A program made the translations under genes and the position numbers. Source: Podarcis cretensis (Eukaryota). Taken from it: DNA of 64,000 nucleotides. The notes under the pieces are model-generated. The model had not been told where the DNA came from. It did not search any database and worked only from the letters and a program-made list of their open reading frames with translations. The stretch is from positions 47,802,001 through 47,866,000 of the forward strand of contig OX638154.1 in NCBI GenBank assembly GCA_951804945.1. The letters run 5' to 3'. Positions 11,655 through 36,764 of the stretch are shown piece after piece (position 1 is the stretch's first letter; the number at the start of each line of letters is the position of its first letter).

Positions 11655-11999
<345 letters not shown>

Positions 12000-24146: not shown

Positions 24147-24695
24147 CAATAGACTTTGGAACTTTTCTGACAAAACCTTTTCATCCCTCTGGAAAGTGGG
24201 AACTCTCAGCATACTTCTTCCAGAGGTATGTAGTATCTGAAATATTTTGTTCAAGCAGCTAACCAGTTACTTGCAATGGTTGCTTTCAATTCCACATCTT
24301 CAGAGTTGCAGCAGAATGTTTTTACATTTGAAAATATGTATATTTGGGCTTTTCTACTAAATGTTCTAATCAGCTAGCTGTGGGTGATAGGCTGAGGCAT
24401 TATTCTGGATGACTTGATTCCTTTTGAAAACCTTGAGTAGGTCAGAATTGCTGCAGCCTGATCCAATGCATGTTTACTCAAAAGTAAGTCCCATGGTGTT
24501 CAATGGGTCTTATTCTTGTTTGCCTAAGATTCCAATCTTACTGTAAGACATATTCTTTCTGCAGTAAGGAGACTATATTAATATGCTCAAAGAACCAGGG
24601 GTGCATATTTAGAAGTATGCATTTTTACATGAAAAAAATGTATTATAGAGCATTTGAATTTGCTTTCCAGCCTAGGTGTTTTCTCAGCCATGTGC

Positions 24696-24701
24696 TTTAT
24701 T
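24696..24701 (-). terminator. Candidate PTH4 polyadenylation signal
   Basis: First minus-strand AATAAA I found, about 460 nt downstream of the stop codon. Confidence 0.45.
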
Positions 24702-25157
24702 ATAACTTAAACCCACATTGCTAAAGGGGAACAGTAGAAAACAGGCACAAAAGACCTCAAGTAATTATATGGGTGGTGGAAGCAGGAAAGGAGCATAAGG
24801 GACAAAGTGTGAATACTTTCCACATACCCCAGCAGAATCTGCATGCACAAATACCTCAATAATATTGTTCAACAAATGCAAAGGAGTGAAGCAGCAATAA
24901 TAATATATAGCCCCTGGCAATATTGCTAACAGTTATAAAATATTTGTCTAGAAGGGAAAATTTTAACCCCTGCACATTCCTGTTTAATAATCGGAATAAG
25001 GGGGAAATGTTCTGACCTTTCAACAATGCCAGATTACAATACTACAAAGGAGTAGTAAATGGCACAAACACACATTTTCTTTGTTAATCAACTTTTCTTT
25101 TGATCTCCCTCAGTGTATCAAGTAGCAGATGGACTGCAATAGGTTCGGTCAGGAAAT

Positions 25158-25548
25158 CTATGTCTGGGTGCTGAGATTTCTTTTGCCATCTTGATCTCCA
25201 CCTTGAAATATGTCAGAAAGATCTTGCCGGTCCTGATTGCCCTTTACATTCTTTAGATACTGCAACACATTTGTTTTCCTGAGGACAGCAACAGGCTCTT
25301 CCTTCTCCATCAATCCCATCAGCAGTTGCTTCATCATTTCTAGAGACTCTTCTCTGCCAGTTCCATCAGAGAGATCGGAGAGGTCTTGGTTCTTTGGGGA
25401 GGTCCACACAATGTGTGCCTGCGGGATGTCCCTGCCCACGGCTGTGTGCACTCCTCCCATGACTTGGTGGAGCCAAATCAGTCGGTTTAACTCTTCACGG
25501 AGATTTCCTTTGTTATGCAAGAACTGGAATTCTGCCACTCCTCTCTTA
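25158..25548 (-). CDS. PTH4: PTH-family hormone (PTH4/PTH-L) mature-peptide exon
   Basis: catttcag|T AAG AGA gives T-KR-GVAEFQFLHNKGNLREELNRLIWLHQVMGGVHTA-VGR...GKRNLSTQT*; PTH/PTHrP 1-34 pattern (V2, E4, Q6, H9, G12, R20, W23, L24, HTA 32-34); 89+391 = 480 nt = 159 aa. Confidence 0.9.
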
Positions 25549-26076
25549 CTGAAATGTGAAAAAGCCAGTACTGTGCTTGAGAAGCAGAAACACATTCACA
25601 ACAAAGCAAGAAAACATTTCAAGTATATTAGTTAAAGATGAGGAAACCAAGATCACTAAGGGATTGTCTCCAACCTTGTTGAACTATCTGGTGCCATCTA
25701 ACTGCTTGCAAAAATAGTGTATGGTATTCCTGGGGTCTGAACCAGTGCTGACCACTTCAGATGTTTGACATCTGCATTCATTATTTTCTTTGTAGAATTG
25801 GACCGATGCAAAGTTGACAGTCCCCCAAGCCATGCAAGTCATTGTCCCACAGCTCCTCATCTGCCTTTATTTGTAATTCTTTAAGGCTGGAATCCTACAA
25901 AGACTACCTCAGAATAAGTTCCACTGAACTCAGTAGGGCTTACTTCTAAGTAGGCATATATAGGATTGGACTGTAAGGCTACAGTTCTATGCATGCTTGT
26001 TTTGGAATATGTTCCACTGAATTCAATGGAATCTGATTTTTTCATGTCTGAATTTGCACTGGTGTTTCTTATTTGC

Positions 26077-26437
26077 TGGGACGCAGGTGGCGCTGTGGGT
26101 TAAAGCCTCAGCGCCTAGGGCTTGCCGATCGAAAGGTCGGCGGTTCGAATCCCTGCGGCGGGGTGCGCTCCCGCTGCTCGGTACCAGCGCCTGCCAACCT
26201 AGCAGTTCGAAAGCACCTCCGGGTGCAAGTAGATAAATAGGGACCGCTTACCAGCGGGAAGGTAAACGGCGTTTCCGTGTGCGGCTCTGGCTTGCCAGAG
26301 CAGCGATGTCACGCTGGCCACGTGACCCGGAAGTGTCTCCGGACAGCGCTGGCCCCTGGCCTCTTAAGTGAGATGGGCGCACAACCCCAGAGTCTGTCAA
26401 GACTGGCCCGTACGGGCAGGGGTACCTTTACCTTTAC
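26077..26437 (+). mobile_element. Full-length young Sauria SINE in the PTH4 intron
   Basis: Near-identical to the 23541 copy; 12-bp TSD TTTCTTATTTGC. Confidence 0.95.
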
Positions 26438-27105
26438 TTTCTTATTTGCCTACCTCTTGCTAAGAAATCTTTTCATGGCTACTGTCTAGCAAATATTATA
26501 TGAGTTTTCAGTGTTGGACTTTGAGTTTTGTTTCAAACTGGGAAACCTAAAATTCAGTAAAGATTAGCCACTGACAGATGCACAACTAACTTTAACCTAA
26601 TATATGAAAAGACAGATTACTGTACAAGCATATTAGCATTGTCGCTGTTCACATGGCTGTTTCAGGTTCTTGCATTATAGTTTCTATCCAGTGACTTTTT
26701 TGTAGTGTAAAATGAAGGTGGCATAGCTAGCTTTTATTTACAAAACCTGTCTGTTCATTATAGTACCATGGACCAAAGAGAGCCCACTGAGGGCCATACT
26801 TGGGGAAAACTCCTATCCAGTTGTGGACAGCATGAATGGGGATAGTGCCTGACCTCCCAACATCTGTGTTTGAGGGGTAGAGTGGCATAGAGGTCAGTGC
26901 AGTGCAAACACACCACCAAATGCATCGGATTGGCTCTGCCAATGCATTTGAACCATGCCGACCTCCCCACTGCCTCACCTCTCTCCTGCCTGAAACCTTG
27001 GAGAGTGGTTAGGGCTTCGCTGGACGGACCAATGGTCTGATTCATTATAAATATGTTCCTGTGTCCTATGTTAGACATGATGATGGCAGTCACATTTCTT
27101 TATTA

Positions 27106-27322
27106 CAGTGGTACCTCAGGTTACAGACGCTTCAGGTTACAGATGCTCCAGGTTACAGCCTCCACTAACCCAGAAGTAGTACTTCAGGTTAAGAACTTTA
27201 CCTCAGGATGAGAACAGAAATTGCATGCTGATGGCAGCGGGAGGTCCCATTAGCTAAAGTGGTACTTCAGGTTAAGAACGGACCTGTGGAACGAATTAAA
27301 TTCATAACCAGAGGTACCTCTG
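27106..27322. mobile_element. Tc1/mariner (Tigger-like) MITE
   Basis: TIR CAGTGGTACCTC, TA target duplication. Confidence 0.85.
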
Positions 27323-28262
27323 TATTTGTGTGTGTGCTCCATCTTTGTAATAAAGTGGTGGTGTACTCCCTGCTCCATAAACTGGGTTAGGAGAAAAGGG
27401 ACTGGACTGACGGAGTGCAGGGGGTAAAAAAAGGGGGTCATATTTCCTGATCCATGCACCCATTTTCATGTCAAGACTACCACATACCTTGGCCTGTTTC
27501 AGACATAATAGGAAACCATGATTCCATAATGGGAAACTCCATAATGGGAAGCTCCATGAAAGAGCCTGTATGAGTCTCAAGTTTCTATGCATCTCTCTCC
27601 CATGGCCACAAGGATATTGGAAGCTTCCATTTTTAAACAAGCCGCAGTTCCTCTTTATGCCCAGGCTGGAGAGATTGTAGCAAGAGGTACTAACCTTATG
27701 ACCAGCAGACCATGTGAGCCTGAGGTTCATGTGGGTTCACTCATGTGGTGAGCAACTGGTTTCCCATTATGTCTAAACCAGGCTAATATATGTGAACAGG
27801 ACAGACATGTGAATAACACATGTAGCTGTCTTCATTGTTTCTTATTTTGCTATGGATTTGTGCTTTGACGTGTTAAAAGAGGTAGCTCTCTCACCCTTAT
27901 CATCACTATCTAGGAATGAACAGAAGATCACTTTATGGTTTACGGAACCATCTTGGAAAGTTCTAACAACAAGAAGACTTTGCCCTTTCCCTTAGCTATC
28001 TTGTGACTTTCACTACAGGATAATCTTGTTTTTAAAAGCAGCTTCCAAATGTATCATATTTTAAAGAAAAATCATTTTAAAAATTACAAACGATGCTAAA
28101 CATATGTTTGCACAGTGATCTCCTTCAGAAAAATACATTATATTGTAAAGCATTACTGCAATGTTATCATTTTGCATCCAAAAGTCAACACAGTAAAAAA
28201 AACAACCCAAAAACCCACCCAAAAGAAAGCTTATCAAAAATTTAACTAAAAAATATTCTTAC

Positions 28263-28351
28263 GTTTCTGTTTCTTGACATGTTGCAAACCAAACAAGAAA
28301 AAAAATGGACAAAAATGTTACCATCTGTAGATATCTTTGGGACAAAAGCAT
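28263..28351 (-). CDS. PTH4: PTH-family hormone (PTH4/PTH-L) prepro exon: signal peptide and propeptide
   Basis: tttacag|GACAGAAG ATG; MLLSQRYLQMVTFLSIFFLVWFATCQETE + AC|gtaaga; 89 nt, phase 2; hydrophobic signal core. Confidence 0.88.
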
Positions 28352-30107
28352 CTTCTGTCCTGTAAACTATTAAACAAGATGAAATAAGATGGACATTGAA
28401 ATGCAACTTGCAGCTATAACATATTCCACTTAAATAATGGATAGTAAAATTAAACCATAGTGGCAGATAGGAAGTATTGGCCTGAAATATATATATTTTT
28501 TTAAAATATTATTCTTTGCCTTTTCATATTTACTGTGACAATAAAAGCCAAACAATTCCATGGTGTATTTTATTTGTATATTAGGACACAAAAGGTTTTA
28601 ATTTGAAACAGTAGGAAACCATCTTTTAAATATGTATTCCAAATATTCCTGTCATAATTATATTACTGCAATCTTCACTCAGGTTAGTATAGCCTATGAA
28701 AATCAATAGCATAATATGTATATAAAATTGTTTGCTTTTGGAGGGAACAAAACAAATATTCTGATCTGAACCAGAACTGGTTTTTTAGAAATATGTGAAT
28801 ACACAAAATACATCCTGAATGGCACAAGCCATTGGTTCAATTTTTCCAGTACTGTAATCACTTATTGACAGATTTTGTCAATAATATATTTGAGATATAT
28901 TTGTATAGCTACATATAATCGACAATATCTTAATTAAATATTAGTTGAAAGAAAATATTTAACAGTGCAACCCTATACATGTCTACTCAGAAATAAGTTC
29001 AATGGGGCTTATATCCAGATAAGTGTATATAGAATTTAAAGCCCAACAGGTTAAAAATAGCAGTGTAATGTAGAGTACTTACTATTTCTCCTTGTACTGG
29101 AGTATGGTAAAGTTGATTTGTGGAGTCTTACTTGTTGCTAGCAGATCTCTAGTGAGCCTCCTTCTGCAATGACAGTGTGCGCCTTCCTAGCTTCTTTTAT
29201 AGTTCTGTAGCTGCACTTAACAATAGGGATGAACTGCGCATCATATTCTATGACTAAGATCTTTTTCTCCTTGTATAAATGAAAGATGTGCTTCTCCCAG
29301 AGACAATCACCCTTGGACAATAAAGTTTACTATTTGGCTAGTGATTAAGACACTGGGACCTCCTGTTTTTGAAATATCTCTCATCCTGTCATTTTCATAG
29401 GATCGTAAAATCATGCTATGGAGGTTGGGATCAATAGCAAGGCTGAAGAATTGGAGACTTTTTATCACTGGGGGACTTATTCCAGCCATTACTTGCTGGA
29501 TAACTTTTGATATAATTTCTGGATCAGCGCCACATGTTTAAGGTAAGAATCAGCTTGATTTTTCTAGAAGGCAGCTGGAGAAGTGGAGAACTGACCATAT
29601 GAACAAGGCAAGGAGGAATCTTCCTCTTCTTGACATGTTATTGTTATATTTTGAATTGGACCAGGATTTACAATGGTGCATGGTCACAATGTGCCTTCAG
29701 TGCCAGGGCTCAGCCCACTTCATGGGATATTACTATATGCAACTAAAAATGTAGAAGCATAAATAAAACTTCTTGCTCAGTAGAAATTAAAGACATACTT
29801 CACACAGCCCACCCCAAATTTTGGGTTGATGTTTATCAGTCTTGGTTGAACTATGGCAGCCTCAATGGCAAACAAATATTCAGGATGCTCCCAGTGAATT
29901 CTCCTGCATCCACCCAGTGTCACCAACAGTAACTTGCAAACTGACCCATAATATCTCTCTGGCGTAACTGGATGGGGCTTTGCTATTATACATGCAATAC
30001 TTTCCTCAGATGCTGCATAAGCAGATTTCACTGCCCATCCACAGATGAGAAATGTGTGCATATGGGGCATAGCTAGAGTCAGAAGATGCAGGACTGTGAG
30101 GGCTCAC

Positions 30108-35851: not shown

Positions 35852-36057
35852 ATGCATCGTGATTCGTGTCCACTGGACTGCAAGGTTTATGTAGGTAACC
35901 TTGGGAACAATGGCAACAAAACTGAATTGGAGCGAGCCTTTGGCTACTATGGACCACTACGTAGTGTGTGGGTTGCTAGGAATCCCCCTGGTTTTGCTTT
36001 CGTTGAATTTGAAGACCCACGTGATGCTGCTGATGCAGTCAGAGAACTAGATGGGAG
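35852..36057 (+). CDS. SRSF3: SRSF3 (SRp20) coding exon 1, RRM
   Basis: [68 protein letters not shown]; 206 nt. Confidence 0.98.
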
Positions 36058-36764
36058 GTAAAAATTCACTTACATTTGGGTTGAGCTTGTATGTATACTC
36101 TGATATATTAATGTAATATACTGCTTTGATTGAAAAGAAAGTTGGTCACAAATAGCCTGGCTTATGTACTTGGAGATCCAAAAGAAATAGAACTGATTTT
36201 CTGTGGGGGCTAGTTGGGTTGGGAAGTAATTCTTACTAACAGTCTGTTAAATTTGTGTGAAATGTAATCCTTTGCTTGTGTTAGAAGAGTTTATTTTGAG
36301 TACAGTTTAAACATGTTGCATATTATTCCTGAGCTTCTAGATTTTGTACAGCTATCAAATTTTGGAAACACTGGTTGTGAGCTCTTGTGGTTCTGAGTGC
36401 CCTGGTTCAAACATTTAATATTTTTTTAAAATGGAAATATGCTCCACGTTGCAGGCTCTTAATGGCTCAGTCTGTAGCTGAATTTCACTCATGTTGACTT
36501 AAAAACATTTTTATTTTGACATCTATAATAAGCCTGAAGCTGAATATGCGTTCTATATGATCAAAACAAAGTGCTGACTGCTTCTTAGGAGTGAAATACT
36601 GGTCCCCAGTCTAATTTTCAGTTAAACAAAACAAAATTAGACTGACTTGGTATGGTTTTGTGTTGAAGTTTAAACAACTAGGGAAATACAGGGGCACTAG
36701 TTGAAGTGTCTGGCTTAGTTTTATTAGGCTGTTAGAACTAACAACCCTTCCCTTTTTCTCTTAG

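Follow-up and report, generated by a model that had tools for sequence, protein, structure and literature searches.

A PTH4 (PTH-L) peptide with an altered N-terminal region in a lacertid lizard

Animals as far apart as lungfish, coelacanth, birds and most lizards have nearly the same PTH4(1-34), a hormone without a settled role in land vertebrates. In the 64,000-nucleotide stretch of Podarcis cretensis DNA analysed here (the window), the minus strand at 25440-25541 encodes an open stretch of 34 residues with Gly1, Phe5, Asn10, Trp23 and His-Thr-Ala at 32-34 (P0001). The initial annotation assigned this peptide to PTH4, took Gly1, Phe5, Asn10 and Trp23 for unusual selectivity residues, and proposed that receptor preference may have shifted in squamates. 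The locus raises the questions whether the gene is an intact PTH4, which of its residues are new and in which lineage, and what the changes would mean for receptor activation.

The gene is the PTH4 (PTH-L) of a lacertid lizard. It is intact and present in a single copy; a second canonical PTH4 was searched for in the genome and none was found. On the minus strand, the signal exon has its ATG at 28351, 89 coding bases (28351-28263) and a GT donor, and the AG acceptor of the mature exon lies at 25549-25550. Position 28263 joins 25548 in phase, yielding an open precursor of 159 residues. The features of the locus are as follows.

28263..28366, minus strand: exon that codes for the signal peptide and pro part, preceded by 15 bases of 5' UTR (the X20 contig aligns at 28263-28366)
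25549..28262, minus strand: phase-2 intron of 2714 bases, GT..AG, just 5' of the Lys-Arg site
25542..25547, minus strand: Lys-Arg convertase site, putatively cleaved (orthologues are also dibasic here)
25440..25541, minus strand: mature PTH4 residues 1-34 (translation, Pfam match, structural relatives)
25464..25541, minus strand: remodelled residues 1-26, with 15 differences from Elgaria PTH4 (protein comparison)
25431..25433, minus strand: Arg37, possible C-terminal cleavage site that would give a 1-36 peptide, by analogy with PTHrP 1-36
25158..25439, minus strand: C-terminal tail, 93 residues and the stop codon (73/93 identical to Elgaria PTH4)
24663..25157, minus strand: 3' UTR to the end of the X20 contig alignment (polyA-like hexamers at 24988 and 24701)
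11697..11858, minus strand: exon of the neighbouring STK38 kinase, synteny marker (51 aligned residues identical to PDB 6bxi)
35852..36058, plus strand: first coding exon of the neighbouring SRSF3, synteny marker for PTH-L (69/69 identical)

Several lines of evidence bear out the original assignment to PTH4. The Pfam Parathyroid domain (PF01279) is matched with 33.9 bits against a cut-off of 22, the best solved structural relatives of the mature peptide are PTHrP and PTH, and the closest named proteins are squamate PTH4-like entries (73% identity to that of Elgaria). Orthology is further indicated by a 1-34 domain that follows a dibasic site within a secreted-type precursor and by linkage to SRSF3. 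The locus sits between STK38 and SRSF3, and in chicken and Xenopus SFRS3 (SRSF3) is described as a marker of the PTH-L locus (PMC3009671). The two coding exons, with an intron before Lys-Arg, reproduce the PTH-like gene structure described for PTH-L (PMC4354418). PTH, PTHLH and TIP39 are separate genes in the same genome (L001, L003, L008). Arg37 is kept in 103 of 105 orthologues.

The predicted splice 25548/28263 is present in the contig of one relative (run X20, organism H, guessed to be RNA; depth 50), with 104 letters on the short side of the joint. This is one of four runs whose RNA status was guessed, none of the matching runs being recorded as RNA, and its tissue is unrecorded; the others (X15, X17 and X18) gave unspliced contigs of low depth, uninformative on expression. 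Past 28366 the X20 contig continues for another 75 unplaced letters, which suggest that a non-coding first exon lies upstream of 28500. The intron holds two repeats of high copy number, at about 26040-26440 and 27100-27330, where contig depth is very high; they are probably SINEs.

Ancestral states were read from 105 non-lacertid orthologues with the N-terminus present, a bird-heavy set that remained after 13 of 118 PTH4 proteins lacking the N-terminal region had been dropped; extra proteins of unclear orthology, two of which have Tyr5 or Gln5, were left out of the count. The His5 and Asp10 of canonical PTH4(1-34), each found in 104/105 as had been said for His5, are absent from the lizard peptide, which has Phe5 (0/105) and Asn10 (1/105) instead, and Phe5 is thus not broadly shared. 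Gly1 is likewise found in none of the orthologues. The initial annotation missed a larger change at residues 13-19; Asn13, Leu14, Arg15, Glu16, Asn19 and also Ile22 each occur in 0/105. The Phe5 codon (25527..25529, minus strand) is two base changes from any His codon. Trp23 and His32-Thr33 are universal in the set (105/105) and Ala34 nearly so (104/105). The letters were therefore read correctly and the first three residues are indeed unusual, but Trp23 is not, and the His-Thr-Ala end, earlier taken for a PTHrP-like trait, is ancestral in PTH4; both were rejected as novelties.

The change is not squamate-wide. His5, Asp10 and Trp23 are kept in each of the 14 non-lacertid squamate genera with a named entry (geckos, a cordylid, anguimorphs, iguanians and snakes), which contradicts a shift "in squamates". 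The searches yielded no PTH4 from a teiid, an amphisbaenian or another named lacertid. The motif 'MHD', which every PTH-L studied is reported to have at 8-10 (PMC4354418), is absent from the lizard peptide but also from the 14 genera, and is thus no marker of orthology. Positions 9 and 11 of the lizard peptide are His and Lys, as in most non-squamate orthologues (89/105 and 88/105), and Val2, Glu4, Gln6, Leu8, Gly12, Arg20, Trp23 and Leu24 are retained. A platysternid protein named 'apolipoprotein A-II-like' (Platysternon, P0020) is a PTH4 by sequence. The earlier description of the N-terminus as more PTH-like holds at best weakly: the peptide shares 12/34 residues with the animal's own PTH, against 10/34 for Elgaria PTH4, and 13/34 with its own PTHrP.

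Compared with the PTH4 of Elgaria (alligator lizard), the peptide differs at positions 1, 3, 5, 7, 9, 10, 11, 13-17, 19, 22 and 26, whereas residues 27-34 show no difference. The remodelling of 1-26 requires at least 19 base changes, with four codons needing two. Residues 1-34 give a branch length of 0.687 and the tail one of 0.215, which inverts the usual pattern. Among the nine other squamate tips, Sceloporus has 0.305 and the rest 0-0.06. In relative-rate comparisons of 1-34 with a gecko or cordylid as outgroup, 13-15 changes were unique to the window sequence and 0-2 to the other species in 12 of 14 cases (p 0.0001-0.004). The two comparisons against Sceloporus gave non-significant values (p 0.27-0.3), and only one of seven reached p<0.05 when alligator served as outgroup. 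The tail also evolved faster than that of Elgaria (p 0.02 and 0.001). Residues absent from nine other squamates make up 12/26 of positions 1-26 against 15/93 of the tail (p=0.002). Of the seven family-core positions, shared by PTH, PTHrP and Elgaria PTH4, one has changed (Leu15), against 14 of the 19 others (p=0.011). Leu15 has become Arg, and with the 13-19 swap the net charge of 1-34 goes from +2 to 0. The rate tests are at the protein level, the PTH4 DNA compared being lacertid only, and the direction of change was judged from counts against outgroups and from branch lengths. These comparisons show a burst of change in residues 1-26 which, among the genera sampled, falls on the branch that divides this lizard from the other lizards and snakes.

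A compensated codon deletion and insertion at 14-17 was considered and set aside since, by hand reasoning, it needs as many events as plain substitution. The PTH4 of Sceloporus undulatus (P0012) shows a second, separate speed-up of 1-34, with 10/34 differences from Elgaria and His5 kept.

The new N-terminus recurs in close relatives. A Logan protein (P0002) agrees with the lizard peptide at 33/34 positions, and a Podarcis muralis UniRef model (P0008), the sole named protein with this N-terminus, agrees at 32/34, its residue 1 stemming from a mis-joined model; the protein is uncharacterised. Contigs of five sampled relatives (C, E, F, G and H) hold no amino-acid variant and one synonymous variant in 1-26, and 11 nonsynonymous and 8 synonymous codon variants in the tail. 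The contrast between fixed and variable changes gives p=0.006, but 0.078 on omitting run X20, which has 44 undisplayed gap positions; a test of 1-26 against the tail that uses nothing but the variable positions per site gives p=0.10. The sequences are thus suggestive, though not firmly so, of stasis in 1-26 after the burst. Val27 (25461-25463) is found only in the window sequence, the five relatives, P0002 and P0008 having Ala27. Among 120 listed of 199 matches there was no RefSeq PTH4 of a lacertid or of Rhineura, though their PTHrP entries exist, which is possibly an annotation gap caused by the divergence. The PTHrP of this genome is 99% identical to a Lacerta/Podarcis cluster.

Exons of PTH1R, PTH2R and PTH3R (some exons of each) were found in the genome. 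PTH1R keeps the residues matching Phe288, Leu289, Leu292, Leu354, Ile363, Gln364 and Tyr429, in what we take to be the numbering of the human receptor, anchored on PDB alignments. Its second outer loop has Tyr-Phe where the human receptor has Asn-Lys (L025:2198-2290, minus strand), a pair that is a candidate for a partner change on the receptor side. The PTH2R exons are open and keep the matches to human Ile244 and Tyr318; Thr replaces Ala just before the TNYYW motif of TM3, and a PTH1R-like Leu stands at the column of human Val41 (L015:2530-2637, L013:1405-1563), a number that is presumably that of the human PTH2R as matched to PMC5303546. The pairing of ligand Trp23 with receptor Val41 is thus absent, as Trp23 is present but ancestral and the receptor has Leu; at position 5 the ligand has Phe, which is hydrophobic but not the Ile of Ile5-type PTH2R agonists. 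TIP39 has an open frame in the genome (L008), and a loss of TIP39 that would have left PTH2R without a ligand was therefore rejected. For the third receptor, the name PTH3R follows by elimination and from the reported presence of PTH3R in lizard (PMC3483286).

Published pharmacology supports the view that position 5 is relevant to receptor choice. At PTH1R, Ile5 versus His5 is reported to set sustained versus transient cAMP through hydrophobic contacts (PMC9586930), and at human PTH2R His5 is described as blocking activation through Ile244 and Tyr318, with Trp23 pairing with Val41 (PMC5303546). The rule that Ile5 and Trp23 govern PTH2R activation, on which the initial annotation drew, comes from the human receptor; rat PTH2R is reported to respond poorly to PTH (PMC4354418) and zebrafish PTH2R to bind TIP39 only (PMC3483286), and the PTH2R of this lizard has Leu in place of Val at the position-41 filter. 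The earlier listing of Asn10 as a selectivity residue finds no backing in the cryo-EM account, in which positions 1, 10 and 11 alter PTH1R contacts little and neither residue 1 nor Asn10 versus Asp10 makes an obvious difference (PMC9586930). Gly1 is reported to abolish phospholipase C activation while cyclase activity is kept (PMC5407178).

In our preferred reading, which we consider about as likely to be right as wrong, the burst followed by stasis reflects retuning: the peptide would still work as an agonist at PTH1R-type receptors, but its duration, bias or potency would differ. The precursor would be secreted and cut after Lys-Arg, and probably also at Arg37. The C-terminal half (Arg20, Trp23, Leu24, Val31) would dock on the outer domain of the receptor as usual, and the N-terminus would enter the membrane pocket via the conserved Val2, Glu4, Gln6 and Leu8. 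By extrapolation from human receptor work, a hydrophobic residue 5 would pack on Phe288, Leu289, Leu292 and Leu354, all kept in the animal's own PTH1R, and is predicted to lengthen cAMP signalling relative to His5; Gly1 is predicted to weaken phospholipase C signalling, and the 13-19 swap to alter affinity, which the change to Arg of a Leu15 common to all three paralogues could reduce. The direction of the position-5 effect is uncertain, because a bulky Phe could clash in the pocket as has been suggested for His5 (PMC9586930).

The main rival is that a partly redundant PTH4 drifted under relaxed constraint on a long branch, keeping residues for residual binding and with slightly weaker pharmacology; we regard this as unlikely, yet deserving serious weight. 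The loss of Leu15 and the acceleration in Sceloporus fit such drift, as do the reported loss of the gene in placental mammals and the redundancy proposed for it (PMC5640766, PMC4354418). Constraint could also be loose given that chicken PTH-L, which activates PTH1R with an EC50 of 7.7 nM, barely activates PTH3R and is called low-activity (PMC3483286). Drift does not readily account for a rate of change in residues 1-26 about threefold that of the tail, normally the freer part, for the absence of amino-acid variants there among relatives that carry 11 in the tail, or for the His9 and Lys11 that match most non-squamate orthologues.

A switch of receptor, confined to lacertids, would let Phe5 together with the ancestral Trp23 pass the His5 filter of PTH2R and make the peptide a second PTH2R ligand beside TIP39. 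The open PTH2R exons and the retained matches to the two residues linked to His5 exclusion (PMC5303546) are compatible with it, as is the description of zebrafish Pth4 as a brain peptide (PMC5640766). We consider it improbable: the open TIP39 frame leaves no vacancy at PTH2R, PTH is said to activate the rat and zebrafish receptors poorly or not at all (PMC4354418, PMC3483286), Phe is not Ile and the open-access literature gave no Phe5 data, there is no visible convergence on the animal's own TIP39, and position 41 of PTH2R is Leu. Still less probable is that the peptide has become a weak or partial agonist, an antagonist or the ligand of a different receptor. Fifteen changes in the activating half, with Gly1, Arg15 and Glu16 seen in no orthologue, would suit this, but Val2, Glu4, Gln6, Leu8, Gly12, Arg20, Trp23 and Leu24 are kept and, among solved structures, PTHrP and PTH match best.

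Ectopic gene conversion from PTHLH, overwriting the first codons, is very hard to credit. The animal's own PTHLH matches 28/39 bases in codons 1-13 against 32/63 in codons 14-34, and 5/7 same-residue codons in 1-12 are identical; but the longest exact run is 8 bases, the excess of same codons is equal for PTH (7/11) and PTHLH (7/13), the protein identity with PTHrP lies below the 16/34 of Elgaria, residues 13-19 match no paralogue and the donor is on another contig. The codon and base comparisons thus lend no real support to conversion from either PTH or PTHLH. An assembly error, pseudogene or mis-assigned paralogue, to which the missing RefSeq lacertid entries might point, is refuted by the same sequence in contigs of five relatives, the spliced contig, the open frame, the single copy and the synteny.

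A squamate-wide change at position 5, the chief site of receptor selectivity, does exist, but in PTHrP. Among 115 PTHrP proteins with the N-terminus (3 of 118 were dropped for lacking that region), Tyr5 occurs in 26, namely every named squamate row and two others, mostly together with Thr1 (P0140-P0234), and His5 in 88, including tuatara, turtles, crocodilians, birds, mammals and amphibians; the remaining one is a faulty gene model. The PTHrP of this genome has Thr1 and Tyr5 (PTHLH; L001:1507-1521, G000:C5). Lizard receptors are therefore likely to accept an aromatic residue at this place, and Phe5 in PTH4 resembles Tyr5 in squamate PTHrP more than Met5 in the animal's own PTH. More speculatively, and on balance we doubt it, lizards and snakes gave up His5 on two occasions: in PTHrP, where all squamates came to have Tyr5, and later in lacertid PTH4 (Phe5, with 1-26 rewritten), matched by the aromatic pair in the second outer loop of PTH1R. 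On that view the lacertid PTH4 would have taken on a new role as a natural hormone that is long-acting, biased towards cAMP or active at PTH2R, and it would offer a ready-made analogue from nature with which to study the position-5 switch.

The PTH4 gene itself is already known; we found no report in the open-access literature of the lacertid N-terminal variant or any lacertid PTH4, of Tyr5 in squamate PTHrP, or of Phe5 analogues. A lineage in which half of the activating region was replaced and then kept offers a direct comparison of old and new peptides on cloned receptors. In PTH drugs the bias and duration of the signal are governed by residues 1 and 5, which makes the natural Phe5 and Tyr5 variants useful probes.

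The PTH4/PTH-L of chicken, Xenopus and fish (PMC3009671, PMC3483286, PMC5640766) resembles that of the lizard in the SRSF3 locus and, as described, the intron before Lys-Arg, and shares Trp23, the His-Thr-Ala end, Arg37 and a homologous tail; the lizard peptide differs in lacking His5 and Asp10 and in having Gly1, Phe5, Asn13, Leu14, Arg15, Glu16, Asn19 and Ile22. With PTH and the Ile5/Trp23-type PTHrP analogues, whose effects are known on mammalian receptors only, it has in common a hydrophobic residue 5, His9-Asn10 and Trp23, and its Gly1 is that of PLC-deficient PTH analogues (PMC5407178), but residue 5 is Phe and not the Ile or Met of PTH. Squamate PTHrP is similar in its aromatic residue 5 (Tyr versus Phe), Leu8-His9 and Lys11-Gly12, and is set apart by another gene and contig, Phe23 and a basic nuclear-signal region. 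Tyr5 belongs to all named squamate PTHrP, whereas Phe5 in PTH4 is limited to one lineage.
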